Part shown: positions 42,665 to 63,851 of the stretch, one piece after another
Position numbering within the stretch: the first letter of the stretch is position 1
Layout of the letters: each line of letters starts with the position of its first letter
NCBI GenBank assembly: GCA_964566925.1
Contig: CAZMIZ010000001.1
Coordinates: 135,248-199,247 of the forward strand
Source: an uncultured Gammaproteobacteria bacterium
GTDB taxonomy: Bacteria; Patescibacteriota; Microgenomatia; PFEM01; DATLAM01
Length of the DNA stretch: 64,000 nucleotides
Direction: 5' to 3'
The notes under the pieces: model-generated
The model's database searches: none
The model's input: the letters and a program-made list of their open reading frames with translations, nothing else
Told to the model about the DNA's origin: nothing
Program-made: the position numbers and the translations under genes

Positions 42665-42673
42665 TGTGGATAA
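42665..42673 (-). promoter_or_regulatory. perfect DnaA box (TTATCCACA) in the dnaA promoter region
   Basis: tgtggataa read directly. It sits within the spacer of a TTGACT-N17-TTAAAT promoter-like pair at 42651-42679. Confidence 0.6.
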
Positions 42674-42737
42674 CTTTGTTAAATTGTCATTGGAGTCTTC
42701 TGCCCTCAACCTGCGTTTAGTTTATTATTCAACAATC

Positions 42738-44314: not shown

Positions 44315-45439
44315 ATGAAACTTTCAATCCTCCAAGAAAATCTTGCCCATGGTTTGTCAATTGTTAGCCGATCGGTGGCTACCAGGGCTCAATTGCCAGT
44401 TTTAAGTAATGTTTTACTAGCTACAGATAAAGGCAGGTTAAAACTTTCAGCAACCAACCTGGAAACCGGGGTTAATCTTTGGTTGGGGGCAAAGGTTGGC
44501 AAAGAAGGCGCCCTTTCAGTCCCTGCTAAAATTTTAACTGAATTTGTTACTTCGCTCCCAGCTGGGAAAATTGAAATAAAGGCTCAAGAGAATAATCTCC
44601 ACCTGGTTAGTGGAACTTACGAAGCCAGTTTTGTCGGCATGGCCGCCAGTGAATTTCCCACCATTCCCAGTCTAAAAAAGAAAGCTGATTTGCAGTTTTC
44701 TAGTTCTCTTTTAGCCTCGGCAATTAACGAAGTGGCTTTTGCCGCTGCTCAAGATGAGGGGAGGCCGGTTCTCGCCGGGGTTCTTTTAAAAAGCCAGGAT
44801 AAAAAGCTAGTTTTAGTAGCCACAGACGGCTACCGATTAAGCATAAAGAAAATTAAAGAGACAAAAGGAGTTGACCGAATTAAAGACCTAAAGAAAGGCC
44901 TAGTTTTACCCGCCCGAACCCTTTTGGAAGTAGCCAGGGTTGTGGCTGAAAAAGAAGAGGAAAGTCTAGGCGTAAGTGTGGCTCCCGAAGCGAGTCAATT
45001 AATTTTTACCACCAGTGAAATAGAAATTGTTTCTAGATTGATTGAAGGCAATTTCCCAGATTTTGAAAAAATTATCCCCGGTAAAGGGAAAACCAAGGTT
45101 GTCCTTGACCGAGAAGAACTGACTCGGGCGGTGCGGATGGCCGCGATTTTTGCCAGGGAGTCAGCGAATATCGTTAGATTTCAAATTTCTGGAAACAGTC
45201 TTCAGATCAGCGCCAATACGGCCCAAGTGGGTGATAACCAGAGCGTGCTTGAAGCCAAGGTTGAAGGGGAGAAGAGTGAAATCGCTTTTAATTCCCGCTA
45301 TCTTTTAGATTTTTTAAATATTGTCAATTCAGACCAAATTGTCTTTGAGACGAGTGGGGCGCTTAACCCTGGGGCCTTCCGGCCAGTAGGTGAATCTTCC
45401 TATCTTCATATTATTATGCCTGTTCGGGTTCAGAAATAG
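44315..45439 (+). CDS. dnaN: DNA polymerase III beta sliding clamp
   Basis: MKLSILQENLAHGLSIVSRSVATRAQLPVLSNVLL. Confidence 0.9.
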   Translation: MKLSILQENLAHGLSIVSRSVATRAQLPVLSNVLLATDKGRLKLSATNLETGVNLWLGAKVGKEGALSVPAKILTEFVTSLPAGKIEIKAQENNLHLVSGTYEASFVGMAASEFPTIPSLKKKADLQFSSSLLASAINEVAFAAAQDEGRPVLAGVLLKSQDKKLVLVATDGYRLSIKKIKETKGVDRIKDLKKGLVLPARTLLEVARVVAEKEEESLGVSVAPEASQLIFTTSEIEIVSRLIEGNFPDFEKIIPGKGKTKVVLDREELTRAVRMAAIFARESANIVRFQISGNSLQISANTAQVGDNQSVLEAKVEGEKSEIAFNSRYLLDFLNIVNSDQIVFETSGALNPGAFRPVGESSYLHIIMPVRVQK

Positions 45440-49500: not shown

Positions 49501-50216
49501 GCCAGACGGCGGTGTCTTTCTGGGTAAAAAAGAAGGTCGGGAGTTGCCTCAAGCGCCCAATAAGCCTGGGTTGAATATTTTGTGGCCAGCTCATTAAAAT
49601 GAAGCAAGGGTCCAAGTTCCTCTTGGAGGGCAATTTTTTTAGCTTGTGATAATCCCTTCCAGGCTGATAGCCGGGGCTGGCCAGCCTCATCTAGAAGGTT
49701 TTCTTTTCTAAGGAGATGATAGACACGTTCTTGAATAAGTTCATTTTCTGGGATTTCTGGCTCAACCGGATCAGTAAAATCGGACAGGGCGGCTGATCTA
49801 GTTTTTTCTCTTTGGAAAAAATCTGTTTCGCCAGTTTTTTCCACCCCTTCCCAGCGGTGTTGGTGAGCTTTCTCAACCTGCTCCTCAACGGTCGATTCGC
49901 CAGCCTTTTTTAATTCCCCCTCAATTTTTTTAGCTAGGTGTTTCTGGTGGGCTTCAATCAGATTGCTCAGCTCAGGAGGAAGAGGGGGAAGACTGGGCAA
50001 GAACCCCTTTTTAAAAGAGGCGTCAAGGGCTTTTTCTAATTCTGGAAGAAACTCTGGTTTAATGACCGTAATCGGAGCTTTAATCCCCAATTCACGGGCC
50101 CAGAGGGCGAGATTGGCTTTTGCCTTATTTTCAATTTCTTTAGGAACATCTTTTAGCTGAAGACCTCTGATTAATCGCCAAAGGCGATAGTATTTTCCTA
50201 AGATTGCTTCATCCAT
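46533..50216 (-). CDS. giant polytopic membrane protein with C-terminal Cys-rich region and M23 peptidase domain
   Basis: 1227 aa. A soluble N-terminal region of about 600 aa, about 10 TM helices, then HEGIDIP ... HSGYGCYVIIQH ... GRSTGTHLHFG, which are M23 HxxxD/HxH motifs. Confidence 0.7.
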   Translation of the reverse strand: MDEAILGKYYRLWRLIRGLQLKDVPKEIENKAKANLALWARELGIKAPITVIKPEFLPELEKALDASFKKGFLPSLPPLPPELSNLIEAHQKHLAKKIEGELKKAGESTVEEQVEKAHQHRWEGVEKTGETDFFQREKTRSAALSDFTDPVEPEIPENELIQERVYHLLRKENLLDEAGQPRLSAWKGLSQAKKIALQEELGPLLHFNELATKYSTQAYWALEATPDLLFYPERHRRLAIKLGRNYAQRVNDQFYKTHTETLGKTGSMAAAQTEAQKTAEDLTIRLFEEASGVEDAVKKIFKPLNLTPNERAKLIGQIKKSLLSHGSRYLNPVIPINRRLLQSLVPNLPKEVFLDVDENNLPRIQVRPLGHPERETTYWAIPTEEGAINQTIQALKGPFGAEAIYLKNQIEYFATNPIGGTISLTVIDPIRGALEALVPGAKWAHLKYIDYTFKKGELLRKIYITPELNYRFWTAVKRRLGGRLGLYKEAFYAPGKSKPVFSPLAWLGQSSSAPFRRGANYFFGRSQKSKSLFMKRFWFGLSRAFRRREQDWDRSPLVLLLKLGLDLTVGTVARLTQRLAFGQLAKVWTSLTETSFGKRFLGAPAIRGLRMTVSFSGQFARSFFSFNTLSGTVLGYAVGEMIGFPQLGIILGGGSGHFYQFWLDIGKNDRWLAWLREPSTHFTSKWIRRIVGKPAIWLTEHPYARFPIKGLALGYVLYTAGLIPLWAIPIPALAQWAWATREWWWPFARTGLSKIPGFLRFLNLLAKLGRIPALLGRFIPWLFPIVTTSPLIMDLLSGTPPLIALQNWFSGPLYLGQFTLIDVAFLTRPLWWPTLKAGLISAINFIIPDAVAYWLYETIPMIVATITSASILTLAGIGLLALLSVFTLYVITSAFFVEQAIRSHVISPELPIEKTVTPVFDQNGEIIALDYTLTYSYNPEDEAAGLLGNIQVFDRFEEPGFVSLIMLYDPDTSTFSPCDPTQQPSSTHVSNTFAWTQEECSQLGPLSPGGSQTITIHLALRDPPLSNYLQGEEMLCDNLTVMGTTQSGKNLSSSSPPVCINAAGETWIFGWPTCYHDCSSNYGWRADPLPPHECEFHEGIDIPPDGCTDIHPATRGVIAQQGYHSGYGCYVIIQHRENLYTLYGHLEDEFRCNFPKNEGDEVSSSDIIGIMDDSGRSTGTHLHFGVSSCGTISCFLGSPEDPCNYLPGCPQKCLFKSYGDCSGSPIL

Positions 50217-50251: not shown

Positions 50252-52177
50252 TTAAACTCCCCTAGCTTCGGCTGTTTCTGGGAATTTTTCTGGCTCAGAA
50301 GGAGTTTTCGCTTCTGAAGTCTGGACTGCTCCTGGCGCTTCTTTTGCGGCCTCAATTGCTTTTCTTTTGATTTCTCTCATCGCCAACAGCTCTTCTGGCT
50401 TAGAAGTAATCAATTGGTGTTCGTTGGGGGAGGCCACGACTCGGATCGCCACGTGGTTGGGTCCAGCAAAAAAGAGACCTTCGCCGATGTCCGCTGCTAA
50501 CAGAAGGTGTTTTTCTCCTTCAGAGAGATAGAAAACCTCGGCTACTTGGTCAATGGCGGCGGCCGACATTTTCATCAAGGTTTGGATTGAGGAGTTTTGG
50601 ACAATCGCCTTGCCGTACTCAGAAGCAAGAAAATCCTCAGCGTCCTGAGTGATGGTAGTTAAACCAAGATAATATTTCCTTGCCCTTTTAGCAATTGAAT
50701 AAAGGAAGTTAGCCGAATCCGGATACTTCATTAGATACCAAGCCTCGTCAACCACCAAAATCCGTTTCTTCATTTCTTTTTTGATTTTCGTCCAGATATA
50801 GTCGAGGATAATAAACATGGCAATTGGCCGTAAAGTATCTTCCAAGTCTTTAAGAGAAAAGACAGTAAAGGGGCTTTTAATATCTAGATTGGAGTGTTGA
50901 TCAAAAATGCCGGCGAAACTGCCTTTAACGAACTTTTCAATCCGATCAGCCAGGGAGATCGCTTCTGGTTCTTCCATCCCGCGCAGAGCCTTGTAGAGAT
51001 CCTCCATTAATGGCGGCTCATTTTTCTGGGTAGCTGGGTCCGGGGTGATCCCTTTCATTTTGTAAGTTAAAACTAGAGCTCGATCTAGAGTAGCCTCTTC
51101 GCTAGGCGAAAGCTGCCCCATAATTACTTTAAAAAGTGAATGAAGAGAAAGAATTTTCAGACCGAGTTCGTTTTCGCCTTCTTCATAAACAGCGGAAAGA
51201 TCAAAAGGGTTGATTTTGGCTTGGCTGCCAAAACCAAAACTAATAAATTCCCCACCCACCGCTTCAGCTAAGGGCTGATATTCGGCTTCAGGATCAATAA
51301 TGAGAATTTCACTATCAAACATCAGGGAGCGGAGGGCTTCTAGTTTAACCAGGTAAGATTTACCGGAGCCAGATTTGCCAAAAACAACCGCGTTGGCGTT
51401 TTCCATGGTGAAGCGATCAAAGATAATCAGCGAATCATTGTGCTCGTTAATGCCGTACATGATTCCCTCATTGGCGGTAAGCTCGCTTGAGGTAAAAGGA
51501 AAAGTGGTGGCCAAAGAGGTTGTGTCCATGTTCCGGGTGATCATCAGCCGATCATAACAAGTAGGCAGGGTAGCTTTGAAGCCCTCTTCCATCTGAAGAG
51601 TGGCTTTTTTAGAAATAATTAAGAGCGAACCTAAGGTTGATTCGACTTGTTTAGAAACCTGGTCGAGTTCTTCTAAGGTTCCAGCCGGGATGGTGATGTA
51701 AAGGCCGAATTGGAAAAAACGCTCCGCCCCTTTAACTAGCTGTTCTTGCAGTTTCCGGGCGTCTTCTAGTTTTGCTTTAGTGGCAGGATCAACAATTCTT
51801 CCTCTTTGGGTATCTGATTGGATTTCGGCTTCCATTTCACCAATTTTACGCCGCAGCTCATCTAAAATTGATCTCCCTTCAACCGGATAGACATACATCG
51901 AAATATCCAATGAGTGATCAAAATTGATTAAAGGGGCGAGCCAATTGGCGGAAACAAAGCGGGGATAGCCAGCCACGAAAAGGGTCCGGAAAAAAGTATT
52001 GCCGATTTTAACGTGATTAAAGTCCACCTCTAAAGCTGGCGGAGCAATCAAGTCCTGAATTTGGACCATTCCTTTGCCCAGGCTTTCCGTGGGAGGCAGC
52101 TTTCTCTCTCCATTAGGAGGGGTTCCGGCTGACTGGCCTTTTGGAGCGGTTTTGGTTTTTAGGAAAGGTAAGCGCAT
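50252..52177 (-). CDS. VirB4/TrbE-family type IV secretion ATPase (ATPase core)
   Basis: Walker A VVFGKSGSGKSY, Walker B RILVVDEAWYL, a TTITQDAEDF motif, and the N-terminal CagE/TrbE/VirB domain start FFRTLFVAGYP. Confidence 0.8.
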   Translation of the reverse strand: MRLPFLKTKTAPKGQSAGTPPNGERKLPPTESLGKGMVQIQDLIAPPALEVDFNHVKIGNTFFRTLFVAGYPRFVSANWLAPLINFDHSLDISMYVYPVEGRSILDELRRKIGEMEAEIQSDTQRGRIVDPATKAKLEDARKLQEQLVKGAERFFQFGLYITIPAGTLEELDQVSKQVESTLGSLLIISKKATLQMEEGFKATLPTCYDRLMITRNMDTTSLATTFPFTSSELTANEGIMYGINEHNDSLIIFDRFTMENANAVVFGKSGSGKSYLVKLEALRSLMFDSEILIIDPEAEYQPLAEAVGGEFISFGFGSQAKINPFDLSAVYEEGENELGLKILSLHSLFKVIMGQLSPSEEATLDRALVLTYKMKGITPDPATQKNEPPLMEDLYKALRGMEEPEAISLADRIEKFVKGSFAGIFDQHSNLDIKSPFTVFSLKDLEDTLRPIAMFIILDYIWTKIKKEMKKRILVVDEAWYLMKYPDSANFLYSIAKRARKYYLGLTTITQDAEDFLASEYGKAIVQNSSIQTLMKMSAAAIDQVAEVFYLSEGEKHLLLAADIGEGLFFAGPNHVAIRVVASPNEHQLITSKPEELLAMREIKRKAIEAAKEAPGAVQTSEAKTPSEPEKFPETAEARGV

Positions 52178-52180
52178 TGT

Positions 52181-53062
52181 TTATCTTTTTTTAACTGTTT
52201 TAATTAAATTGTCAATCTGCCGCTGAAGGGCCTCGCCTTCCAGAGGGGGTTGACCACTGGCCGGCGGCTCCCTTTTTTCTGGTTCAGAAGAAGGGTTGGG
52301 TGAAGATGGGGTTGGTTGAGGCGAAGGAGCTGGGGGTGTTGGGCTTAATGGTTGAGGCGGAGGTGATGATTCAGGCGAGGGAGCTTCTAAAGCTGGCTCC
52401 ACTAAAGGGGTTTTGTATTCAGAGGCAGCGGTAATTTTTTGTCCTTGAGTTTCCGGGTTATAAATAGAGAAGAAGAGCTCAATTAATTCCTGGCTGCTTA
52501 GCTGATGAGTTCTTAGACCTAATCGGCTGAGGAGGCGGATCAGGTGATCTCTTTTGGGGTAAAGATTGGTTTTGGCTCGCTCAAGGATATAGTCTTTAGG
52601 AAAAGGAAGGCCCTTTTTCTTTTTAAAAATGGAAGTGGCTGCTTTAGTGGCGCCTAGCTCCAGAGCAGTCATCGGAATGACAATATAGAACTTTTTATCC
52701 AAAACTTCATTTTGCTTCACGGTTTCTGCAACGAAGGCTCGATATTTTTGGATCTGTTCAGCCAGGAGGGGTTCCTTTTTTTTCTTTTCTTGTTCCTCCA
52801 AGAGCTTCAGATAGTTGGAAATATCTTTTTTAATGGAACGAATCACAATTTGGATCGGAAAGGTAAGTGAATTAAGAAGGCCAGCGTAAGCATAGATGGT
52901 GGCGTCTTGCTCTTTTTCCGAAAGCAAACCAAAATTGATGGCAGTCGTCGCCAAGACCAGACAGACACCACCGTCTTTAAGGACCACCAGGTCATCTTGA
53001 ATATCCTCAATATCCAAATGCTCTTGACTAGTCGCTCGAATAGGAATTTTGGTAGGATCCAT
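52181..53062 (-). CDS. VirB4 N-terminal-domain-like protein with Pro-rich tail (in frame with the downstream ATPase ORF across one TAA)
   Basis: DLVVLKDGGVCLVLATTAINFGLLSEKEQDATIYAYAGLLNSL resembles the N-terminal region of Gram-positive VirB4 homologues. Its stop TAA (52181-52183) and the ATG of the next ORF (52175-52177) are separated by one codon in the same frame. Confidence 0.4.
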   Translation of the reverse strand: MDPTKIPIRATSQEHLDIEDIQDDLVVLKDGGVCLVLATTAINFGLLSEKEQDATIYAYAGLLNSLTFPIQIVIRSIKKDISNYLKLLEEQEKKKKEPLLAEQIQKYRAFVAETVKQNEVLDKKFYIVIPMTALELGATKAATSIFKKKKGLPFPKDYILERAKTNLYPKRDHLIRLLSRLGLRTHQLSSQELIELFFSIYNPETQGQKITAASEYKTPLVEPALEAPSPESSPPPQPLSPTPPAPSPQPTPSSPNPSSEPEKREPPASGQPPLEGEALQRQIDNLIKTVKKR

Positions 53063-53144: not shown

Positions 53145-53519
53145 TTACTTTTTCTTTAGTTTATTTATTATCGAATTAAAAATTAAGTTTAGCTCTTTAG
53201 CTTCTTGCCATAATGTTTTTGCCTCTTCCTTTAGTTCTGGGACAGCAATAGGAATCATTCTTAACCAATGTTTTGACTCTCTTGATTCCTTTTTACATAT
53301 ACCGATTTTATGGCCAAAGTCTCGTTTAGACTCAGCGTCGTCGGCCTCACAGTAGTTAGCTCCAACACTGGTTCCTGCTTTAACAAGTTGAGTTATTAAC
53401 GGGGTCGTTATCGGCATCTTGGGTATTCTATTGGCAAACTTAATAATATTTTCGCCAAACCTGGCGGTTCTCTCTTCTAAATCGAATTTTTTACTTTTAG
53501 TTATTTTGTTATTAGTCAT
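53145..53519 (-). CDS. four-helix-bundle protein (23S rRNA intervening-sequence protein / Avd-like family)
   Basis: ARFGENIIKF ... QLVKAGTSVGANYCEADDAESKRDFGHKIGICKKESRESKHWLRM matches the TIGR02436/PF05635 family. Confidence 0.75.
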   Translation of the reverse strand: MTNNKITKSKKFDLEERTARFGENIIKFANRIPKMPITTPLITQLVKAGTSVGANYCEADDAESKRDFGHKIGICKKESRESKHWLRMIPIAVPELKEEAKTLWQEAKELNLIFNSIINKLKKK

Positions 53520-53552: not shown

Positions 53553-54581
53553 TCAATTCTGCTTGGCTTGAATTTCTATTGGCTGAGTAATTTCCCCTTT
53601 AAGAATAATTTGGATTAGGTCAAAGTGGAGGCCTTCCTTTTCCACCTCGATTTCGTAAGTCCCGTTTTTTAAAGGACTGGCGATTCTGAATTGGCCGAGC
53701 TTGTTGGTTTTTAAGGCTCGGACAGGCGAACCTTTCTCGTCTCTGATTTCAATGATGGCATTTTCAACCAGCTTGCCCTCTTGATCAATGACCATGCCCA
53801 CTAAAATATTGGGACGGTCTGGTGGAGCGGGAATGGGGAGATCAGGGGAAAGTCTGGGTTTAACCGTAGGCGATTTTACCCGGGCTGGTTTTTTGATTGG
53901 GGCAGCTTTTTTAACTACTTTCGGCTCTGGGGCCGGTTGGGGCATGGTTTTTTCGGCTGCCTTGGTGGGCGCTTTTTGGGGTTCAGCTAAGGGAAGGTGA
54001 AGTTTCCGGATTTTAATTCCCGGTTTTACCTCTTCAGCCAGGGCTGGCTTGACATTCGGGGTTAAGGTGGATGGGAGAGAAACCAGCTGGAAGAGATTGC
54101 CGATTTGGTTAAGGGCGCCCTCTTCCTGTTGATCTAGCGGACTGGATGGGGTAGTGGTGGGCAGTGTTTTGAGGTATTCCTCGAGCCGGGCTTGATCAAC
54201 CGGTGTGGCGGGGGCTTGTTTCTTTACTTTCGGCCGAGGGACAACCTTAAAGAATTCCGGCTTGACCGGTGTTTTCTTCCAAATAAACTGGGTGGGTGAA
54301 TAGATGGCTTTTGAAAAGGCGATAAACCAGCGGTCAAGTGGCCGTTCCTCAATCGGCATAAAAGCAAAAGCAACTCCGCTGAGACCAGAAAAGATGACTA
54401 GCGGCCATTTAAAATAAGAAGCCAAGGGGGCAGCGTAAAAAAGAAGAGCGACGAGACAGCCACCTGCCAGAAACCCAAACTGTTTAAGGGTCATGTCGCC
54501 GACCAGCCGAAACTGGTAGGCGGTGATATGTTGCGGGACAGGATGTTGTTCCATAAGCGCTTCGCGCAGGACAGAGCGCAC
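53553..54581 (-). CDS. PrgI/VirB3-like membrane protein with Pro/Lys-rich linker and C-terminal CarbopepD_reg-like beta domain
   Basis: N-terminal ITAYQFRLVGDMTLKQFGFLAGG plus two TM helices resembles the PrgI family. The C-terminal ILVGMVIDQEGKLVENAIIEIRDEKGSPV ... NGTYEIEVEKEG is transthyretin/CarbopepD_reg-like. GTG start. Confidence 0.4.
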   Translation of the reverse strand: MRSVLREALMEQHPVPQHITAYQFRLVGDMTLKQFGFLAGGCLVALLFYAAPLASYFKWPLVIFSGLSGVAFAFMPIEERPLDRWFIAFSKAIYSPTQFIWKKTPVKPEFFKVVPRPKVKKQAPATPVDQARLEEYLKTLPTTTPSSPLDQQEEGALNQIGNLFQLVSLPSTLTPNVKPALAEEVKPGIKIRKLHLPLAEPQKAPTKAAEKTMPQPAPEPKVVKKAAPIKKPARVKSPTVKPRLSPDLPIPAPPDRPNILVGMVIDQEGKLVENAIIEIRDEKGSPVRALKTNKLGQFRIASPLKNGTYEIEVEKEGLHFDLIQIILKGEITQPIEIQAKQN

Positions 54582-54626: not shown

Positions 54627-54998
54627 CTAAGATTTTTCTAAGTTCTTCATTAATGTTGTTAAAATTTTCATTAATTCGGTATTCCTGGTAAGAAAACCCT
54701 TAATCATTTGATTATCAAACTTTTTCGTTTCAAACATAACATCCAGCCAATAATCTGCCTCAAAGCTGGATCCTCGGGAAATTCCAAGAAACTGACGATA
54801 GCTTTTAGAATAGTAGCGACCATAACCTTCGGCAATATTCGCACCAATAGAAGACAGCGCCCTTATGAGTTGACCAGTAAGAATTTCAGCAACTCTATCT
54901 TTTCGTTGGATAGAGAAATATTTAATGGCATCAACTGTTAACAGTTTTGCCTTTTGGTAAGCAATTAAGTTTTTATAGGAAGCGGGCAGTTTTCGCAT
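54627..54998 (-). CDS. four-helix-bundle protein (23S rRNA intervening-sequence protein / Avd-like family), second copy
   Basis: YQKAKLLTVDAIKYF ... GQLIRALSSIGANIAEGYGRYYSKSYRQFLGISRGSSFEADYWL matches the canonical family signature. Confidence 0.75.
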   Translation of the reverse strand: MRKLPASYKNLIAYQKAKLLTVDAIKYFSIQRKDRVAEILTGQLIRALSSIGANIAEGYGRYYSKSYRQFLGISRGSSFEADYWLDVMFETKKFDNQMIKGFLTRNTELMKILTTLMKNLEKS

Positions 54999-55146: not shown

Positions 55147-58100
55147 TTGTTAGGAGAAGAAATGCCTGAGGAAAGTCAAGAAAAAGGAATGATGCCAGGA
55201 GAAAAAAGTTTTGGCCGTCCTCATCACCCAGAGGCGAAGCCCACCATGGGTCTCCCAGGCCAGCCTGAAAAAGGGGAAAGATACTTTGCTACCTTGAACG
55301 AATTTAGAGAGGCTCTTGAAGGAATTCCCGATGGGTTTAAAAAGAAAGCGAATCGTTTAAGAAGGAATCTTCGCTCAGCCATAAAAAAGAGTGAAGAAGA
55401 AAAGGTCGGGGATATTTTAAAAGAAGTAGACGGATTAGTAGAGAAAGAGCCAAAGCTGGTCCAGTGGTCAGAATTGATGGAACAAGAGGCCACCGGGGAA
55501 GTCCAACCAGGGGAATCAAGCGAAAAGTCGGTCGGAGAGATAGTCGAAGAGCCGCCCCAAAAAGCGAAACCAGAAGACATTCGGATGGTTCCGGACGCAA
55601 TCTCTGACGAAAGAATGGAAGACGATGAAGAGGTCCTAGTTGATCCGCGAACAGAAAAAATGAAGTTCGTTGAGAGATATCCTCTGTGGGTGGAAGAAAC
55701 AACCAGAAGCGTTGCCGAAATTCGGGGTCAATATTTCAGATTTTTAGCCGGCATTGGTGCCCGCCAGCCAGTTCCAGGTCAAGGAATTAATGATTCTGAA
55801 TGGGAAGAGATTGCCAGATATACTGCTGAAATAGATTCAATTATTCGGAAAATTGGGAGAAAGGAGAGAGGAGAAAGAACGGCTGAAGAAAAAGGAGAGC
55901 TTAAGAGGGCACAAAAGCTTAAACGGATGGCTGGCGCTTATTACCATGAGCTTGAGTTTTATCACCGATTTTGGTACGGAGAGGAATCAGGAATCGGTAA
56001 GGAAGTGAAAAGATCTAAAGAGGGATCAAGACTTCTTTTGATTGACCAAATGGCGGTTCTTTTTACTATTCCTGAAGTGGCGAAAGCCTTTAAAGAAGAA
56101 AAGGGCTATAAAAGTGATGCTGAGTTAGTTGATGAGGTTAATGATCCCTATGGCTGGCGAAGACTGGGACATCACCTTCGCCGTTATTCGTGCACCCCGA
56201 TGTATCGGGACGCTTATGAGGCGGGGGCGAAGACAGCTAAACCTGGTGAACCGATTAAACCGGGGTTTGGTCTTAGCTACGAGTATAGTCTTTTTGGCAT
56301 TTACTTTACTGGGAGATGGGCGGAAAAAAACAATGCCAAATACGCCAAAGTTCTTCGAGTAGAAGATGCTGATGGCAATCTGATTATTGATCTGGGGAAA
56401 TTAGGAGCCACCTATGATATGTGGACTACCCCTGCCAGACTAGAGTTGTATGTTCTTTTTTGGGAGCATTTAGGAAAAAGAAACCAAATTAGACTCTCTG
56501 CTGGGAGGGGAAGAGAATGGCTAAACAAGCACGAGGAGCAGCTTTATTCCAAAAAAGCAAGCGAAGGGCTGCGAGATCTTCTTTGGAATTATCGAGATAA
56601 AGAAAAAGTCCTTAGAGACCGGATTGGCGAAATTGATAAGAAAAAGGAATCAGAGGGGTTATCCGCTGAAGACGAAGAAGAGCTTCAACAGCTCCAATCT
56701 AGCCTTCAAGACCTTCTAGCGGAGCAGGAAAGGCTAGTTGGATTCTCAAATGAGGAGATTAAAGAGTTTCGGGAATTACTAATGAAAAAAGCAATTAATA
56801 GAGAACAACTAAGAGAAGATGAAGAGGAGAGCCTGGCAGAGCTTAAAAAGACAATCGGAAACGTGATGCTTAGAAATATGATTAATCGAGACTTAGGTTT
56901 TGACCCCTCTGAAAGAGACTTTAATCTGATTGCTATTTTTAGCGATCCCTTGAGTCGGCACGAAGAACTTACGCCCAATGATATTTTAACCAACCTCTTA
57001 GTGGATGTCCGGAGGATGGAACAAACCCAGGACGCTTTAACAGCCGGAAAAGAATGCTTTATCGCTAAACCTTCATTTGAAATGATTCTTGACATGGAGT
57101 CGGAGGTATATGCTCATCTTGGTTATTTTCCTTGGTTAAGGGAGAGACAGATATTTGCCCTGAGAGAGCTTGTTTCTAGATTATATTTAGCCGGGGTTAT
57201 TAACACGATCAGGTTAAGCGGTACTCACCTTTTTGAAGAAGAGAGTAAAAAAATTTATGATAGTTTGAAGGCAAAGGCTAATGTAGGTCTTCACGCCGAA
57301 GGTTTGAAAGCCACTTATGGAATAGATTTTACTGATCCCGACCTCAAAGACGGCGCATCGCTTGCTGAAGTAATCAGATGTCTTAAGCTAGTTCATAGAG
57401 GGAGGTTAAATGCAATTTATGAACAAAGAAGAGAGCAATGGGTGATCAATGTTTTAGAGAAAGGGGTGGCAGCAGAAGCCCACGAGAAGGTGCGATTTCT
57501 TAGCCGATTCAGATTTTCTGATTATGTCTCTTTTGAAGCGCGGATTATTGAAGAACCAGTGCTTAACGCTATGGGGTGGACCAGGGAAGAAAGTCTAGAG
57601 AAAGAAAAAGAACGGTTTCGAACTCGCGACCTTTGGTTAGCCAAAAAAGGCCAACTTCCTGGCGATGACGGCGTCTTTATATTTAGCCGTAATCAGGCGT
57701 TAAAACCGGGTTGGGAGAGGTTCGCGAGAGAGAAAGGGGAAAGTGATCGAAGGAAAGAAGACGGCAGGTGGATTTATGGTTATCGCTACGAAACCGATAA
57801 ATTTGAAAAGGTAGGCTATGTAACCGACGAAAACCACGTTTATCGAACTATCGCCTGGGAGGATCCAATCCAGAAAAGCTTATTTGAAGTGGAACAGCTG
57901 ATTTATTCCAAAAATTACGAGATTTTGAGTAAATATATTGATGAACACTCCCCGGAGATAATTGATGATCCCAACGAATGGTTAACCCCTCCTCAAAGGC
58001 AGAATCTGATTAAAGATCACCTCCGCCGGATCAGTATTGATCCTGACCGAGCCGAAGTTTTAATGAAGAAATATTCTTGCACCAATGCCGATTGCTGGAT

Positions 58101-58455
58101 TTGGACGGCCAAAAGGTTGACCTTTGGACGTCTGGCCCCCGAACTTATAGCTAAAATCCCGATTGTTGGTCCTCTTGCCAGAAATGTTAATATTGCCGGC
58201 ATTGGACTTTCTGGCTGGATTGGTGCGGTAGCCCAATTTGGCCTTCCCAGGGTCGCCACCTATTTGACCGGTAATCCTATCGCGATCGGCACCGGGGTTT
58301 ATTTTCTCCAGTTAGGGCTTATCTCTTTTGTTACTAGTCCTCTGGTGCGAAGAATGGCGTGGCTTAGCACCATTCCAGGGACAAATTTTAGGTTAAAAGG
58401 CCTCCTCCCAATTTATTGGGAGCCTAAAGGAAAGGTAAAAGAATATGAGGGTTAA
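55147..58455 (+). CDS. large hypothetical protein with C-terminal TM hairpin (divergent from the T4SS-like genes)
   Basis: 1102 aa, Glu/Lys-rich, with no recognisable catalytic motifs. Two C-terminal hydrophobic helices. Confidence 0.5.
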   Translation: MLGEEMPEESQEKGMMPGEKSFGRPHHPEAKPTMGLPGQPEKGERYFATLNEFREALEGIPDGFKKKANRLRRNLRSAIKKSEEEKVGDILKEVDGLVEKEPKLVQWSELMEQEATGEVQPGESSEKSVGEIVEEPPQKAKPEDIRMVPDAISDERMEDDEEVLVDPRTEKMKFVERYPLWVEETTRSVAEIRGQYFRFLAGIGARQPVPGQGINDSEWEEIARYTAEIDSIIRKIGRKERGERTAEEKGELKRAQKLKRMAGAYYHELEFYHRFWYGEESGIGKEVKRSKEGSRLLLIDQMAVLFTIPEVAKAFKEEKGYKSDAELVDEVNDPYGWRRLGHHLRRYSCTPMYRDAYEAGAKTAKPGEPIKPGFGLSYEYSLFGIYFTGRWAEKNNAKYAKVLRVEDADGNLIIDLGKLGATYDMWTTPARLELYVLFWEHLGKRNQIRLSAGRGREWLNKHEEQLYSKKASEGLRDLLWNYRDKEKVLRDRIGEIDKKKESEGLSAEDEEELQQLQSSLQDLLAEQERLVGFSNEEIKEFRELLMKKAINREQLREDEEESLAELKKTIGNVMLRNMINRDLGFDPSERDFNLIAIFSDPLSRHEELTPNDILTNLLVDVRRMEQTQDALTAGKECFIAKPSFEMILDMESEVYAHLGYFPWLRERQIFALRELVSRLYLAGVINTIRLSGTHLFEEESKKIYDSLKAKANVGLHAEGLKATYGIDFTDPDLKDGASLAEVIRCLKLVHRGRLNAIYEQRREQWVINVLEKGVAAEAHEKVRFLSRFRFSDYVSFEARIIEEPVLNAMGWTREESLEKEKERFRTRDLWLAKKGQLPGDDGVFIFSRNQALKPGWERFAREKGESDRRKEDGRWIYGYRYETDKFEKVGYVTDENHVYRTIAWEDPIQKSLFEVEQLIYSKNYEILSKYIDEHSPEIIDDPNEWLTPPQRQNLIKDHLRRISIDPDRAEVLMKKYSCTNADCWIWTAKRLTFGRLAPELIAKIPIVGPLARNVNIAGIGLSGWIGAVAQFGLPRVATYLTGNPIAIGTGVYFLQLGLISFVTSPLVRRMAWLSTIPGTNFRLKGLLPIYWEPKGKVKEYEG

Positions 58456-58475
58456 AATAGAAAGAGGAGGTTTCA

Positions 58476-59561
58476 ATGGCTGAAGCAATTACCGAAACAA
58501 TGGGGCCAGGTCTGGCTTTTAGAAGAGAGACTCCGGAGAGTCAGGCCCTTAAAGGTTTAGAAGCGAAGATTGGGAGAATAAAAGAAAGAGTTTCTTTTTC
58601 AGACCTGCAACAAAGACTAAAAAGTTTTATTAAAAAAGATATCAGCAATGATCCGGAGATAGAAGGCATAAGTCAACAATTATGGGAAGTAGTTGATGCC
58701 AGGCTTAGGAAAGAGGAAGATCATTTAAAGACAAATGATCTTCCCAGGGTGTTTCGAGAAATGGTAGGAAGTCTTTTGCCCGGAGCCTCTCTCGAAGGTA
58801 AAGAGCAACTCCAAGAATTATTGGTTAAACTTTCTGAGTTTGAAGCAAGGGGAGTTATGGGAGAATTAAGCCCCGATCCTCAAAAAGCTTTTGAACAACT
58901 TTCAGGTTTAATTTTAGGAAAAGAAGATGGAGAGCAATTCGTTAACACCATGACAGAGGTGGCCGCTGCAACAGAAAAGCCCTATCCAAAACCGAAACCA
59001 CCCAGTCTTCCTACCGGAGAAAAAGGTTTTTTTGGGAAAGGTAAGGGCCCGGGTCTTAGATATTATAGATTGATGGTTATAGGGATTGCTCTGATGACCT
59101 GTTGCGCCGCTCAAGGAGCTTGTCCTGGTCTAAAGATGTATCTTGATGTTCGAGGAAGAACGGAGGCAGATTCGGGTACCGAGGCCCAAGAACAAGCCGG
59201 GATTAACCAGGCGGCCCTAGATGTAGTTGATGGAAGATATCCTTATGAATGGCTAGAAAGAAGTGAAACCTTAAGGGGAGAAGAAGGAGAAGAGTTTGCG
59301 AGAAGTGTTCTCGAAAGAACTCGAGACTTGGTCATGGCGGACCCAAATCGGTTAGACCAAATGGATGCCGCCTGGATTGGCCGCCTCATCCATGAGTACG
59401 GGGAAGAGGAAGGCTATAATCTAATTTTTAATCTTGATCAGGTTGATGATTTAGAAAAACGGGATCAAGTAAGCCAATATTTATCTAGTGGGCGGTACGA
59501 AAGTTCTTCTCCTCCAGGCGGTAGCAGAGAAGCAAGCCAGGGAAGCAATGGCAGCGGTTGA
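58476..59561 (+). CDS. hypothetical protein with central TM helix
   Basis: 361-aa ORF, 20 nt downstream of the previous gene. Contains CCAAQGAC next to its TM helix. Confidence 0.45.
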   Translation: MAEAITETMGPGLAFRRETPESQALKGLEAKIGRIKERVSFSDLQQRLKSFIKKDISNDPEIEGISQQLWEVVDARLRKEEDHLKTNDLPRVFREMVGSLLPGASLEGKEQLQELLVKLSEFEARGVMGELSPDPQKAFEQLSGLILGKEDGEQFVNTMTEVAAATEKPYPKPKPPSLPTGEKGFFGKGKGPGLRYYRLMVIGIALMTCCAAQGACPGLKMYLDVRGRTEADSGTEAQEQAGINQAALDVVDGRYPYEWLERSETLRGEEGEEFARSVLERTRDLVMADPNRLDQMDAAWIGRLIHEYGEEEGYNLIFNLDQVDDLEKRDQVSQYLSSGRYESSSPPGGSREASQGSNGSG

Positions 59562-59642: not shown

Positions 59643-61034
59643 TTAAATTCCCGCCGCTAAACCGCCAATAAGTGGTAATCTCCCAATCACTCCGCGCAGA
59701 GTTTGACCAGCCGCGGCAAACATTGGTGGACCAGGCCTTTTTTCAAAAGCCTGATCAATCATGTCGGGGACAGAGGGAGAGATTAAAAGAATTCCTAACC
59801 CAATAATATTAGGAATAATGCTTGGGTCTGTAAAGATATCAGCAATCATTCTCGGAGCCTGGAGGTCGCTCATGGTAACCTGAACATTCCAAGAAGGCGC
59901 CTGACTTATAATTGCCCCTATGGCTAAGACTCCATAAACAGCTGGAAAGGCCAAAACCGATTTGATTAAAGTTTTAAGCCACATCCAGGTCACATTGCCT
60001 CTTCCCGGAATGGCTGAAAAAAGGAGCAAAATGGGCCCAAAAATCGTGGCTAAAAGAAAAGTCACGTAGCGGCTCAAAAGGGCGAAGAAAAGTTTAAACA
60101 TGGTAAAAACCACGACCAAGGCAATAATAAAAGTAAAAATAGAACCACCGCCACCCGGTATGATGGAAAGAATGCCCTCAACCAGCCTGACTAGCGCTAA
60201 AAGTCCTGTTGGCGGGATTGAGATTTGTTGGGGATTAAAACTTAAACCGCCAAAGGCATCATTAAGGAGCTCAAAAAGATTATAATTCCCTGGCGGGTAA
60301 GCAAGAGCCGCACTTTTAATTAAAGTGTTAATCAAGGCCAGCCCAAACTCCATCAGATCGAACATTAGTCCAGCCAAAGCGTAACTGAAGGTAATCAAAA
60401 GAAGAGCAATTACTAGTTGAGGTAGGGCACTTTGAATTGAAGCTACCGTTTGAGGATCAATTTTGGCCCGAAACATAATCATAAAACCGACGGCAACGAA
60501 GATGATAACCAAAAAGAGATAAGCTAGGCTTCGGAAAAGTTTCCAAAGATCAAGGATGGGTTCAAGAGCATGCCAGCCTGTCCCCTGAGCGTAGGCTGGC
60601 TTGACTAAACCTAGATTTTGACCCAGATCAGCTAAATAATCAACCGATGAAGCCGGAGGAGAAGAATAAAGTCCATTAACCAAGGCGATGGTTCCATCTA
60701 AAGCACTAGTGCCCGAAGCTTGTCCTTCAAGAAGCGGAACACCTGTCAGGGCATGAGTGCCGGCATTTCCCGCCTTGTCTACCAAAAAACGAGTAAATTG
60801 ACCGAGATTGATGTCTTCTGCTTCGTACTCTTCTTTTATTTCTTGGAGAAAAGTTGGTAATTGGCCTTCAGAGGGAACATCAACCGGACTTGGAAGATAG
60901 GCGGCCTGAGCGATTTTAACCAAAGGAATAATTAAAAGGAAAAGGAGAAGAGAAACAAAAACTATTTTTCGGTTGAAATTTTTGGGCAGCGACATAACTG
61001 CTTTTAAGTTAACATCATTGACTGTTTTTTGCAA
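59643..61034 (-). CDS. polytopic membrane protein, VirB6/TrbL-like candidate
   Basis: 463 aa with a signal-like N-terminus and about 8 TM helices. The size, topology and T4SS gene neighbourhood suggest a VirB6/TrbL analogue. The assignment rests on topology and context and carries no sequence-family evidence. Confidence 0.4.
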   Translation of the reverse strand: MQKTVNDVNLKAVMSLPKNFNRKIVFVSLLLFLLIIPLVKIAQAAYLPSPVDVPSEGQLPTFLQEIKEEYEAEDINLGQFTRFLVDKAGNAGTHALTGVPLLEGQASGTSALDGTIALVNGLYSSPPASSVDYLADLGQNLGLVKPAYAQGTGWHALEPILDLWKLFRSLAYLFLVIIFVAVGFMIMFRAKIDPQTVASIQSALPQLVIALLLITFSYALAGLMFDLMEFGLALINTLIKSAALAYPPGNYNLFELLNDAFGGLSFNPQQISIPPTGLLALVRLVEGILSIIPGGGGSIFTFIIALVVVFTMFKLFFALLSRYVTFLLATIFGPILLLFSAIPGRGNVTWMWLKTLIKSVLAFPAVYGVLAIGAIISQAPSWNVQVTMSDLQAPRMIADIFTDPSIIPNIIGLGILLISPSVPDMIDQAFEKRPGPPMFAAAGQTLRGVIGRLPLIGGLAAGI

Positions 61035-61043
61035 GTGGTTTAT

Positions 61044-63851
61044 TTATTCCTCCTCTGGATTTAAGGCTTCCAAAACCCATTCTTTTGCCTTTTGAATGCC
61101 GCCTAAATGAGGGAAATAGAATTTCCAGGGTTCGCCTGGGGTGATCGAACCCCCAGTGTAACTGTAGTTAATGTAGCTATGGGCATCAAGGTCTTCAAAA
61201 GTTGACTCGGTTTCCGGCCGGAAAATGTTAAAAAGCCCCTGGAAAGAATCGGTAGTCTGTTCCCAGATTTGGTCAAGATAAGGATGAAGAAGGTCGACCT
61301 TAACATCCCGGTGAACATGGCGGGTTTCGACATTGCGACATTCAGGGTTAAGGAGGTCTCTTTCGCCAGTGGCCGGATCAGTAAACCAAACACAAGGGCC
61401 GGTGTAGTTTGGGTTTTCGAACTGATCAACCGCCTTCAGGTCAATAAAAATCGGATCACAGCAGATGGTGTCATTCGGATTATTATCGCTGACACTTTCA
61501 TATTCACAGGCTGGATAAGGTATTGGTTCGGCCAGACCGCATTCACGTGGCTCAGGCATTGGCCCAAGACTGCCACAGCAGGCGGTTCCATTTTCATCTA
61601 AGGTCATAGAGCAACCACCCGAGACAACATAATGAAGATTAATATTCTCTGTAGTTACAGAGACATTGACGTTAGCACCTGGATCGGTGGGACAGCTAAA
61701 ATAATAGGTCATGCTTGGACCAAGAACATTCATAAACCCAACTTGCTGGCCGTTAATATAGGTGTGGAGGTGACCACAGCCGTGGGCGTCGATAACCACT
61801 GTTCCTGATCCTCCAGAACAACAGATAGCCCTAATGGCTAAGTTGCAACAACAGTCGCCATCGGGGTCGCAAGCATCCCATTCTCCCTGGGCCAAAAGGG
61901 TTTTTTCGCCTAGAACCTGAGGATTGCTCGAAGCTAGAAGAATTTTTTCTGATGCTTCCTCTTCCTCCTCCTCCACCCAAGGAAAGAGCAGTTTTTGAAG
62001 CTCTTGGGTGACTTCAAAAAGTCGGGCGAGATGGGGCACTTTTTCTTCCTGGACAGGCGGAATGACGTCAGCAATATCCTTTCTTTTGACATTAACCGAG
62101 GCAATGACTTGACCAGGGGAATCTTCCCGGGTAAACATCGGGACGGCCGCCCAAAGTTTTCCAGAAGGAGTTCTTTTCCAGCTCTCATAAGCTTTTTTCC
62201 AGTCTTCGTAGTCGTCTGGCTTGGCTTTAACCGGTAGTTCAGGCGGAGGCTGGATTTCACTTAATTGCATTGAATAACCACCATGTTCGATGAGGTAGTC
62301 ATGGATAATCTCGGTGCCTTCTTTAATGTTGCCAGAGAGACTCTTTTTAGCCCGGTCAATCATTTCGTTTTTAAGCTCATCTTGGAGTTCTTTAGGCGCG
62401 AGTTTTCTGAAAACGCCTCCTTCCATCACTGAGCGCTCAACTTCTTCTTGACAAGTTCCTTTTTCTTCACAACTCTCAAGATCGATATCTTGACCATAGT
62501 AGAAGGCAGTACCCTCAAAATAGTCAGCTAAATATTTTTGAACATCCTCTTCGCCCTTTTTACCCACAAAAGGAACGGTGACATCATTGGCATCAATGGT
62601 AATAATGCCGCCCCAGTCTTTTTCAACCCAATGTTCACCAGTTGGTTCACAAACAAAGTCCGAGTCCTCCCATTTCCAGCTGACGGTATCATGGACCGCA
62701 AAAGTGGTGGCGCAGGCATAGGTTAAAGGCGGCTCTAAAATACAAGCATCACAAGGGAGTGGACGGGAATCAGAGTCGCCTCCTTCAGAGGGGGTACAGG
62801 TCATCCCAAGAGCCCCTCCATCATACATGTAAATGGTTCCCCCGCCAAAAGTACTTAGTTCTAAGATGATGATTTTCCCGTCGGCGGTGATGATGACCAA
62901 AAGGGTAATGTCTGGGTGGCCATCACCATCCAAGTCAAGGAAAAAAGAAGTGGTGATAAATTGAACGTCAGGGAAAAGGTCGTGGTTAGCCATAAACTCC
63001 TGAATAATCCCTTCCATAATTTTGACCCATTGCTTTAGATCTTCTTTATCTTGGAGTAACCCACCATGATAAAGAGGGCCCAATTCGGTGATGATGAAAT
63101 TGTTGGGAACCCCTCTTTCTACTAAAAAATCAATCAATTTTTGGTATTGTTTAGAGACCGCTTGGGCATTTTCGCCATAGATGGTTAAGGCGGCTCCATC
63201 AACCAGATCAGCGATAGTCAGATTACCGGAAACCACGGTATTCAAGATGGTATCCAAAAAAGGAAAATCTACTTGGCCTGTGTGGGTAGCCATTGGCGGA
63301 ATTAAGATATTAAAATTTCGATCTGAAATACCCGCGCCCAAAATAAAAGAGGCTAAGCTGTTAGCGAAACTCTTAGCATCAGCCGAACCACCCCACTCAT
63401 AAGAAAGATCCGGCTCATTACCAAAATAAACATTGACTGGTTCGGAAAACTGGATTTGGCTGAGGGCCCAGGCTAGGGTTTCGCCTGCCACTTGAGCTTT
63501 TTGGGGGGAAATTCTCGTCCAACCTTGGCTGGGGCTAAAGTAATCAGAGGAAACCCTGATAATGGGGATGAGATTGTTTTCTTTCATTGCCTGGAGGTTT
63601 TTGAGAAGACTTTCTCTATTCTGAGGGCTAAGATCGGCCGTGCTATAGATAATGGTAACCGGGATTGAATAACCAGCACAACCGTATTGGTCATATTGGT
63701 TTCTAATTTGATCGTAATTTGAGGGATCAATATTGCCGGCAATCTTGGGGCCGACAACACCGCAAGTTTGGGCCAAAACTGGAGAGGGGATAAGCTGCCA
63801 ACCGAAGAAAAAAACGAAAACGAAAAAGATAGTTAGGCAGGGTTTTTTCAT
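61044..63851 (-). CDS. secreted large Cys-rich protein with N-terminal glycoside-hydrolase-like (NEPD motif) domain
   Basis: Signal peptide MKKPCLTIFFVFVFFFGW...A, VYFGNEPDL (a clan GH-A-like acid/base motif), and C-terminal Cys-rich modules (CDPDGDCCCNLAIRAICCSGG). Confidence 0.5.
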   Translation of the reverse strand: MKKPCLTIFFVFVFFFGWQLIPSPVLAQTCGVVGPKIAGNIDPSNYDQIRNQYDQYGCAGYSIPVTIIYSTADLSPQNRESLLKNLQAMKENNLIPIIRVSSDYFSPSQGWTRISPQKAQVAGETLAWALSQIQFSEPVNVYFGNEPDLSYEWGGSADAKSFANSLASFILGAGISDRNFNILIPPMATHTGQVDFPFLDTILNTVVSGNLTIADLVDGAALTIYGENAQAVSKQYQKLIDFLVERGVPNNFIITELGPLYHGGLLQDKEDLKQWVKIMEGIIQEFMANHDLFPDVQFITTSFFLDLDGDGHPDITLLVIITADGKIIILELSTFGGGTIYMYDGGALGMTCTPSEGGDSDSRPLPCDACILEPPLTYACATTFAVHDTVSWKWEDSDFVCEPTGEHWVEKDWGGIITIDANDVTVPFVGKKGEEDVQKYLADYFEGTAFYYGQDIDLESCEEKGTCQEEVERSVMEGGVFRKLAPKELQDELKNEMIDRAKKSLSGNIKEGTEIIHDYLIEHGGYSMQLSEIQPPPELPVKAKPDDYEDWKKAYESWKRTPSGKLWAAVPMFTREDSPGQVIASVNVKRKDIADVIPPVQEEKVPHLARLFEVTQELQKLLFPWVEEEEEEASEKILLASSNPQVLGEKTLLAQGEWDACDPDGDCCCNLAIRAICCSGGSGTVVIDAHGCGHLHTYINGQQVGFMNVLGPSMTYYFSCPTDPGANVNVSVTTENINLHYVVSGGCSMTLDENGTACCGSLGPMPEPRECGLAEPIPYPACEYESVSDNNPNDTICCDPIFIDLKAVDQFENPNYTGPCVWFTDPATGERDLLNPECRNVETRHVHRDVKVDLLHPYLDQIWEQTTDSFQGLFNIFRPETESTFEDLDAHSYINYSYTGGSITPGEPWKFYFPHLGGIQKAKEWVLEALNPEEE

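Follow-up and report, generated by a model that had tools for sequence, protein, structure and literature searches.

A charged giant protein and its bitopic partner: candidate lineage-specific subunits of the chromosomal type IV secretion system in a Microgenomatia-type Patescibacterium

The type IV secretion systems (T4SS) of Patescibacteria are encoded on the chromosome, near dnaA, and usually without a nearby gene for a type IV coupling protein (T4CP) or a relaxase (Quinonero-Coronel et al. 2025, PMC12102498). These systems are thought to export proteins or to serve host interaction (Wang et al. 2023, PMC10633639), and in Saccharibacteria the T4SS is reported to be essential, the first one described as required for the growth of its carrier (PMC10633639, PMC12857230). 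VirB8 is reported to be nearly undetectable in Patescibacteria (PMC12102498), and the genes located between those for PrgI and VirB6 have been left as "no homology" in the published surveys. Here we describe two adjacent genes that occupy this slot in a 64,000-nucleotide (nt) stretch of the contig CAZMIZ010000001.1 (positions 135,248-199,247; hereafter, the window), where the focal region spans 55147-59561. The locus is a chromosomal, dnaA-proximal, relaxase-less T4SS of the monoderm type (MPF-FATA-like), as described for Patescibacteria. This locus type is already known; the families of the two proteins carry no annotation and are exceedingly scarce in databases. The reading that we favor, at about even probability, is that the pair are lineage-specific, non-enzymatic, membrane-associated subunits of the chromosomal T4SS of a Microgenomatia-type Patescibacterium.

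The closest described arrangement is that of S. epibionticum, where two genes lie between PrgI and VirB6: SEML1_0011, for a protein of 998 amino acids (aa) with no known function, and SEML1_0012, for a 278-aa NTF2-like/VirB8-like protein annotated with a Tat signal and the ECOD domain e4ec6 (PMC10633639 supplement). The order of these two genes is that of the large and small genes in the window, a likeness of position and description, and the small protein of the window has, in addition, a 197-aa domain that is probably cytoplasmic. 4EC6 is pIP501 TraM, a VirB8-like protein. SEML1_0011 carries the label essential (ES) throughout the time course, yet its insertions stay high (43, 44 and 46 sites, with about 1100 to 800 reads), like those of SEML1_0012 (PMC10633639 supplement), and this label should be re-examined before anything is built on it. 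A first-pass annotation of the window had proposed for the two proteins roles not represented in known T4SS. The Saccharibacteria locus, with a ~1000-aa protein and a Tat-signal NTF2/VirB8-like protein in the same two positions, narrows that proposal, which holds in part.

The window shares with the MPF-FATA-like T4SS of Patescibacteria the genes for PrgI/VirB3, TrsD, VirB4, a large cell-wall hydrolase and a putative VirB6-like protein, and, in the orthologous loci, arrays of VirB2-like pilins. Also common to both are the adjacency to dnaA (42666-44111) and dnaN (44315-45439), which lie just past the upstream T4SS genes, and the absence of a relaxase or T4CP (VirD4) gene among the open reading frames (ORFs) of the T4SS cluster that were scanned, a part of all ORFs in the window. 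The window differs in that the pair is inverted relative to the neighbouring genes and that its sequence relatives comprise only a handful of metagenome contigs of the Microgenomates/Daviesbacteria type.

The pair consists of two forward-strand ORFs, 55147-58455 (1102 aa from a TTG codon) and 58476-59561 (361 aa). For the large gene, ATG 55162 is the most probable start codon, in place of TTG 55147; this in-frame ATG is preceded by AGGAG at 55152-55156 and the resulting 1097-aa product is identical to the NCBI protein P0001. Both genes are real, as judged from their orthologues, which show 40-55% identity for the large protein (E = 0) and 33% identity for the small protein (E values of 2e-26 and 6e-34), the latter being encoded directly 3' of each orthologue of the large gene. 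The tandem order and the 20-nt gap between the TAA of the large gene (58453-58455) and the ATG of the small gene, with the ribosome-binding site AGAGGAGG at 58463-58470, indicate that the two are almost certainly co-transcribed as one operon. The first-pass annotation had located both ORFs, the larger one with the start now moved to ATG 55162, and had described them as divergently transcribed. This description does not apply between the two genes, and it does apply to the pair relative to the minus-strand operon that encodes PrgI, TrsD, VirB4 and an M23 peptidase; with the VirB6-like gene, the pair is convergent. Scans for promoters and terminators around the pair yielded nothing above chance, the repeat search found no flanking repeats, and the Rfam scan of the window detected only a tRNA, located away from the pair.

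The large protein (55162-58455) is, as noted in the first pass, highly charged (D, E, K and R make up 33% of the residues); it has neither a signal peptide nor an N-terminal hydrophobic segment and is predicted to be nearly all alpha-helical. Hydropathy also bears out the earlier suggestion that it ends in a two-helix membrane hairpin. This Gly/Ala/Pro-rich hydrophobic hairpin (58183-58347) consists of the segments aa 1008-1031 (Kyte-Doolittle value about 1.46, calculated by hand) and aa 1038-1062 (1.71), separated by the short loop PRVATYLTG, and is followed by a basic C-terminal tail (58348-58452) with the pattern RR..., LP-x-[YF]W, GK. The hydrophobic C-terminus is kept in all members of the family. 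In each of the six orthologues, the tail is net positive, with 7-8 K+R against 2-4 D+E, as the positive-inside rule would likewise predict for a cytoplasmic tail, and R1063, R1064, L1082, P1083 and G1090 are invariant. The most conserved block (about aa 150-450; 55609-56511), which contains the motifs YHELEYYHRFWYG, GIGK, GHHLRRY and SYEYS and shows 53-71% identity among the close orthologues, is followed by a variable, E/K-rich long-helix region (about aa 451-550; 56512-56811) with many indels, a block identity of 0.27-0.32 and helices modelled at a predicted local distance difference test score (pLDDT) of about 80. At the N-terminus, a conserved and apparently disordered peptide (aa 1-43; 55162-55290), MP.E.KG..MPGEK....HPHHPE.P.PG..G..GER.FAT, is common to the close orthologues and the distant P0011 and may be a short linear binding motif.

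The family of the large protein is remarkably small. Among 5.8 billion clustered proteins, only five other relatives were found, with 40-55% identity, and an exhaustive profile search of 1.84 billion representative proteins recovered eight family members in total, four of these distant (E values from 4e-38 to 4e-7), including one annotated as a hypothetical protein of Candidatus Daviesbacteria. Contig scans of genomes and metagenomes with the large-protein alignment, for which the search patterns came from a motif kept by close relatives only, retrieved nothing, and tblastn against plasmids gave no match. As the first-pass annotation had it, there are no recognizable motifs: searches of Pfam, NCBIfam, PHROGs, PADLOC and PDB sequences with the large protein, and the same scans of the distant homologues, gave no usable match, and profile searches of both families against PDB sequences returned noise only. 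A PADLOC match to CARF_HEPN (E = 8.5e-4, 16 bits, aa 461-580) falls in the E/K-rich helical region and was taken as compositional. Self-comparison detected no internal repeats or solenoid.

Across the full alignment of 11 family members, three prolines alone are invariant, and there is no conserved Walker A or HExxH motif; the pattern [AG]xxxxGK[ST] occurs in only two of the 11 members, each time at another site, and Pfam yields no P-loop match. We considered HELE..H (YHELEYYH) and GIGK as a catalytic or Walker site and rejected both, as these motifs are not conserved in the distant members, HELE..H being lost in P0009-P0012. HELE..H is thus no catalytic signature. Judged by its motif content, the large protein is unlikely to be an enzyme, and it is certainly no T4CP. 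The C-terminal hairpin was also examined as a VirB2-like pilin domain and rejected: the pilin hidden Markov model (HMM), built from 381 ORFs, matched no large protein (best E value of 1.4), and comparison of the C-terminal alignment with the pilin alignment by hhalign gave a probability of 0.1%.

The small gene (58476-59561) encodes a 361-aa bitopic membrane protein. Its N-terminal domain (aa 1-197; 58476-59066), predicted to be cytoplasmic, ends in the conserved juxtamembrane motif PYPKPKP (58980-59000)/GEKG, and the C-terminal domain (aa 220-361; 59133-59558), which is likely extracytoplasmic, carries the conserved motifs DGRYPY, IARLIHDY and EKR.QV, so that conserved motifs lie on either side of the single transmembrane (TM) helix (aa 198-219; 59067-59132). 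Because the N-terminal side of this helix is rich in K and R, the positive-inside rule places the N-terminus in the cytoplasm and points to an N-in, single-pass topology. The one TM helix agrees with the first-pass annotation, which had, however, described it as flanked by a CCAAQGAC cluster; the cysteines (Cys209, Cys210 and Cys216) actually belong to the outer half of the helix itself and lack conservation, with CC present in L002 and L003 and absent from L001, L004 and L007. Sequence search found no relative of the small protein in the indexed databases; Pfam (at E <= 1), NCBIfam, PHROGs, PADLOC and the VirB8, PrgL or TraM-type models gave no match, and profile and single-sequence searches against PDB sequences, VirB8-like chains included, yielded noise only, even at E <= 1-10.

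To place the pair in its genomic context, we compared the loci of the close orthologues of the large protein (L001-L005), and those of the distant homologues (P0009-P0012), with L006, L007, L009 and L010 among the loci compared. The order large gene, small gene, VirB6-like gene is retained in every recovered locus, that is, in L001-L004 and with the distant P0009, P0010 and P0012; L005 ends within the small gene, ahead of any VirB6-like gene, and L010 carries the large gene alone. A T4SS flank (PrgI, VirB4 or pilins) is present wherever the contig extends far enough. The genes for PrgI, TrsD and VirB4 adjoin the pair on the divergent side in L001 and L007, and in L002, L003, L004, L006 and L009 the pair adjoins the PrgI gene and/or the VirB6-like gene and T4SS pilins. 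The upstream side of L009 differs (NAD synthase, HEPN/NTase), yet the pair still adjoins the VirB6-like gene. The co-location with secretion genes reported in the first pass thus extends to related genomes, and no dissociation from VirB4 was seen.

The pair does not diverge on its own. Between the window and L001, identity falls from 85% for VirB4 through 70% for TrsD and 69% for PrgI to 53% for the VirB6-like protein, 47% for the large protein, 36% for a 935-aa protein encoded beyond the VirB6-like gene and 33% for the small protein. Among close relatives, the large protein (47-55% identity) and the VirB6-like protein (53-62%) evolve at a similar rate. The loci L003 and L006, both from one metagenome (JGI 3300041075), are closer to each other in PrgI than any other two loci (88% identity), yet their large proteins are at 24%, their VirB6-like proteins at 47%, and their small proteins are not alignable; the 935-aa protein of L006 stands about as near to that of the window (61%) as does the one of L002 (65%). 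The trio of the large, small and VirB6-like genes behaves as one unit of divergence or exchange, and this common divergence, our strongest indirect argument, suggests that the three proteins work together. The trio comes in two subtypes. In subtype 2 (L006, L009, L010), a WDD[IL] tail is added to the C-terminus of the large protein, and the small protein is short and Tat-like; in L006 and L009, the latter consists of a brief N-terminal stretch bearing a Tat-like RR motif, a TM helix and a 140-190-aa domain. No homology is detectable between the subtype-1 and subtype-2 small proteins.

The arrangement extends beyond the recognizable relatives of the pair. The VirB6-like protein has 142 relatives in Patescibacteria genomes, and a search of species-representative genomes with its alignment yielded 80 loci (L011-L090), which, where titled by lineage, come mostly from Microgenomates (Shapiro-, Curtiss-, Gottesman-, Beckwith-, Davies- and Chisholmbacteria); a few are titled Uhr-/Falkowbacteria or Parcubacteria, and many bear the names of non-Patescibacteria taxa. 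Almost all loci with sufficient flanking sequence encode a protein of 570-1877 aa convergent to the VirB6-like gene, and in 15 distinct loci, as in the window, the gene next to the VirB6-like gene on that side is one for a small protein that has a hydrophobic helix. We compared 69 such positional large proteins, drawn from 83 Patescibacteria loci, with 169 other large ORFs of the same loci. An N-terminal hydrophobic segment is found in none of the 69, as opposed to 90 of the 169 controls, and a hydrophobic segment in the last 150 aa in 34 (controls, 31); in 25 of the positional proteins, this C-terminal segment is the sole one, compared with six of the controls, and the charged fraction is 0.30 against 0.20. 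Pfam search with 34 representatives detected no domain except for one M23 match, and otherwise no toxin or enzyme domain. This class is defined by position and architecture, and the common descent of its members appears plausible.

Two side observations pertain to this survey. With a small bitopic gene next to it, the VirB6-like protein stops exactly where the family profile does (median C-terminal extension of 1 aa, 19 loci), and it has a C-terminal extension with a median of 76 aa, and up to ~200 aa, where there is no small gene (64 loci), which could be a domain trade-off or fusion. Furthermore, a Patescibacteria-type T4SS gene occurs in metagenome-assembled genomes, representatives in GTDB, that are titled "uncultured Gammaproteobacteria/Pseudomonadales", "Methylococcaceae" or "Bathyarchaeia" (L012, L017, L019, L020, L030, L032, L044, L077 and others); these titles are probably default or wrong taxonomy labels or reflect bin contamination.

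Under the favored interpretation, the ~1000 charged, helical residues of the large protein, which lacks a signal peptide, would remain in the cytoplasm, and the protein would be fixed in the membrane post-translationally through the Gly/Ala-rich hairpin, with the basic tail in the cytoplasm as well. It would thus form a scaffold or docking platform on the cytoplasmic face of the translocon, beside VirB4, TrsD and PrgI, and may assume the substrate recruitment that is performed elsewhere by a coupling protein; in a locus type without a nearby T4CP, such a receptor-like role is vacant. The small protein, the gene position of which is that of the VirB8-like protein in Saccharibacteria, would connect this cytoplasmic layer to the outside face. 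Together with the convergent polytopic VirB6-like protein, the two would make up a co-evolving membrane module, the components of which presumably interact physically. Of the roles named in the first-pass annotation, namely inner-membrane platform, coupling or substrate, a membrane-associated role in the machine fits the topology and the co-divergence with the VirB6-like protein; there is no ATPase motif, and any of the specific roles may apply.

Several known T4SS components provide partial parallels. The large protein would resemble the T4CPs (VirD4/PcfC/TcpA) and the adaptors of the Dot/Icm coupling complex in that most of its bulk would sit in the cytoplasm, held to the membrane where the T4SS has its base. 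It is not homologous to these proteins and differs from them in the absence of a P-loop or any catalytic motif and in that its anchor is C-terminal (aa 1008-1062 of 1097) rather than N-terminal. With the extended VirB6 proteins (F TraG, Rickettsia RvhB6, pCW3 TcpH), it shares the combination of membrane segments and a very large hydrophilic domain beside the channel. We rejected the possibility that it is itself an extended VirB6, given that it has only two hydrophobic segments, compared with five or more, and no TrbL/VirB6 match; moreover, its hydrophilic part comes first, and a separate VirB6-like gene exists in the locus.

Several findings weigh against the proposed role. No homology or fold evidence ties either protein to a known T4SS subunit. 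The structure prediction and Foldseek search suggested in the first pass were run on the large protein and gave poor models and no match. AlphaFold2 produced unreliable models, with pLDDT values of 43 (6 sequences) and 51 (11 sequences) and predicted template modelling scores of 0.27 and 0.32. Helix makes up nearly the whole of the model; long helices are confidently placed at aa 40-110, 180-260 and 430-570, and a beta patch of low confidence lies around aa 837-895. The best Foldseek match to PDB had an E value of 0.76 and a template modelling score <= 0.1. The hairpin is only moderately hydrophobic, and rapid divergence and cassette-like variation are also expected of effectors and host-specificity factors. 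Most of the positional large proteins are not detectably homologous to the family in the window. The 69 proteins fall into 34 clusters that are not linked by BLAST, which leaves the notion of one ancient family unproven; iterative HMM search links only L012 (E = 1.4e-6) and L022 (E = 2.7e-5) to the window family, the others being not significant, and profile-profile comparison with hhalign links only L022, with 49% probability. Finally, SEML1_0012, the positional counterpart of the small protein, is listed as non-essential (PMC10633639 supplement).

The alternative that fares best, which we regard as possible but doubtful, is that the small protein is a divergent VirB8, with an NTF2-like periplasmic domain, that is "missing" from most annotations of Patescibacteria T4SS, the large protein being a separate accessory. 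Like the VirB8-like subunits pIP501 TraM/TraH, pCF10 PrgL and pCW3 TcpC, the small protein is predicted from hydropathy to be an N-in, single-pass protein with an extracytoplasmic C-terminal domain and is encoded among channel genes, directly adjoining the VirB6-like gene; these subunits are notoriously undetectable by sequence. The reported scarcity of recognizable VirB8 in Patescibacteria (PMC12102498) also speaks for this reading. In addition, the subtype-2 small proteins of L006 and L009 share the architecture of SEML1_0012, which is itself annotated with a Tat signal and an NTF2-like domain. The subtype-1 and subtype-2 small proteins are, however, not detectably homologous, and the small protein of the window matches neither the VirB8/PrgL models nor the VirB8-like PDB chains, even at the permissive cut-offs given above. 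Its long N-terminal domain of 197 aa is foreign to VirB8-like subunits, and the C-terminal domain is short, with only ~100 conserved residues following the TM helix, few for an NTF2 fold.

Less probable, and in our view unlikely, although it is the chief competing idea for the large protein, is that this protein is a substrate of the T4SS, that is, a translocated effector or a protein that inserts into the host membrane through its hairpin and is exported by virtue of its basic tail, with the small protein serving it at the membrane as a chaperone, immunity factor or release factor. A basic signal at the C-terminus is common among T4SS substrates, and the tail of the large protein is net positive in all orthologues. 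Bilobed hairpins of moderate hydrophobicity, such as the one found here, resemble those of secreted membrane effectors, namely chlamydial Inc proteins and effectors of type III secretion systems (T3SS) and T4SS that contain transmembrane domains. The large protein is akin to these also in the lack of a signal peptide and in its rapid divergence, and the very fast divergence across Patescibacteria, the cassette-like variation between otherwise close genomes and the view that Patescibacteria T4SS export proteins or serve host interaction (PMC10633639) are all compatible with an effector. Unlike the Inc proteins and related effectors, the large protein has its hairpin at the extreme C-terminus of a 1000-aa protein. 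Effectors are usually scattered and variably present, whereas the large gene keeps one place within the core locus throughout a class-level radiation. Moreover, conservation among close relatives is similar for the large protein and the VirB6-like protein, the co-diverging unit includes this putative channel subunit, which better fits interacting parts of a machine, and the search of the 34 representatives, the M23 match aside, revealed no toxin or enzyme domain.

It is very improbable that the pair is functionally unrelated to the T4SS, as a housekeeping or cytoskeletal/envelope module or as selfish cargo in this origin-proximal, gene-dense region, because, even though no homology links the pair to the T4SS and other unrelated small genes (of the 23S_rRNA_IVP type) are inserted in the locus, the pair invariably adjoins the VirB6-like gene, also in L009 with its altered upstream side, the trio co-diverges, the exhaustive search found no large-family member outside T4SS contexts, no plasmid matches, and the defence models give only the weak, compositional match in the E/K-rich region.

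The neighbouring genes complete the picture of the locus. The first gene of the divergent T4SS operon (53553-54581, minus strand) encodes PrgI (VirB3-like; PF12666, 31.5 bits versus a cut-off of 27 bits). In this 342-aa protein, a Pro/Lys-rich linker leads to a CarboxypepD_reg (Ig-like) domain at the C-terminus, an arrangement that is unusual for a VirB3-type protein; the version in L007 is 581 aa long. The same strand carries the TrsD/TraD-like gene (52181-53062), the product of which resembles the N-terminal domain of VirB4 (NF041427, 2.8e-6, under the curated cut-off; the L001 orthologue matches PF26593, TraC-like), followed by the VirB4-type ATPase gene (50252-52177; P-loop_TraG, 5.6e-28; AAA_10, 7.4e-13; CagE_TrbE_VirB) and a gene for a 1227-aa protein with a C-terminal M23 peptidase domain (46533-50216), a cell-wall hydrolase in the position of a VirB1 analogue. 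A 358-aa protein without an assigned family is also encoded in this upstream minus-strand set. PrgI is flanked by two paralogous genes for four-helix-bundle proteins of the 23S_rRNA_IVP/bAvd-like type (54627-54998 and 53145-53519, both minus strand); the same two positions are filled in the Daviesbacteria-type L007 (4623-4976 and 6816-7199) and not in L001, and such a gene is also present in L008 (426-809). The VirB4 gene of L007 (1-3613) holds an intein (Intein_splicing and LAGLIDADG_3) in the P-loop domain.

On the other side of the pair, the minus-strand VirB6-like gene (59643-61034) encodes a 463-aa polytopic protein, probably a divergent channel subunit, that co-diverges with the pair. 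Its TrbL/VirB6 match is weak (E = 0.16 in the window, with a best value of 0.0082 in two of seven orthologues), and its location on the side of the pilin arrays fits a VirB6. Between the two, a gene for a 935-aa Cys-rich protein with an N-terminal signal/anchor (61044-63851, minus strand) is conserved in related loci. The protein contains CCC, CC and CxxC clusters, has no Pfam match and shows 61% identity to its counterpart in L006 and 65% to that in L002. In many Microgenomates loci (in addition to the window, L002, 6845-9811, and L006, 6450-9401), the interval from the VirB6-like gene to the pilin array encodes a large protein (~650-1600 aa) with an N-terminal signal/anchor; these proteins are candidates for a pilus-associated adhesin or a wall-spanning part. 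Pilin arrays lie directly past the 935-aa gene in L002, L006 and L007; the window ends (64000) at that point. In total, 381 pilin-like ORFs were identified in 90 loci, usually of 100-180 aa. Apart from these, there are "extended pilins", proteins of 260-475 aa with a seemingly C-terminal pilin domain after a signal-anchored extension (L041, L043, L049, L054, L056, L059-L061, L064, L068, L074, L078).

The slot between PrgI and VirB6 is filled phylum-wide by a charged giant protein that lacks a signal peptide, is often anchored at the C-terminus and co-diverges with VirB6, with a bitopic partner in the lineage of the window. As far as we can tell from the literature on Patescibacteria T4SS that we consulted, neither this pattern of a charged, tail-anchored giant next to VirB6 nor the cassette-like behaviour of the trio has been described. 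A more far-reaching idea, which we consider a long shot, is that the trio is an exchangeable "specificity cassette", in which a non-ATPase giant scaffold replaces the coupling protein as the substrate gate or is itself shot into the host membrane via its hairpin. If so, the cassette would determine what moves between epibiont and host, and for which host, and the allelic replacement between the near-identical backbones of L003 and L006 would be a genomic trace of host switching. With the pair, there are concrete candidates for a cytoplasmic or receptor layer that has been missing from the Patescibacteria T4SS or, alternatively, for its first substrate.

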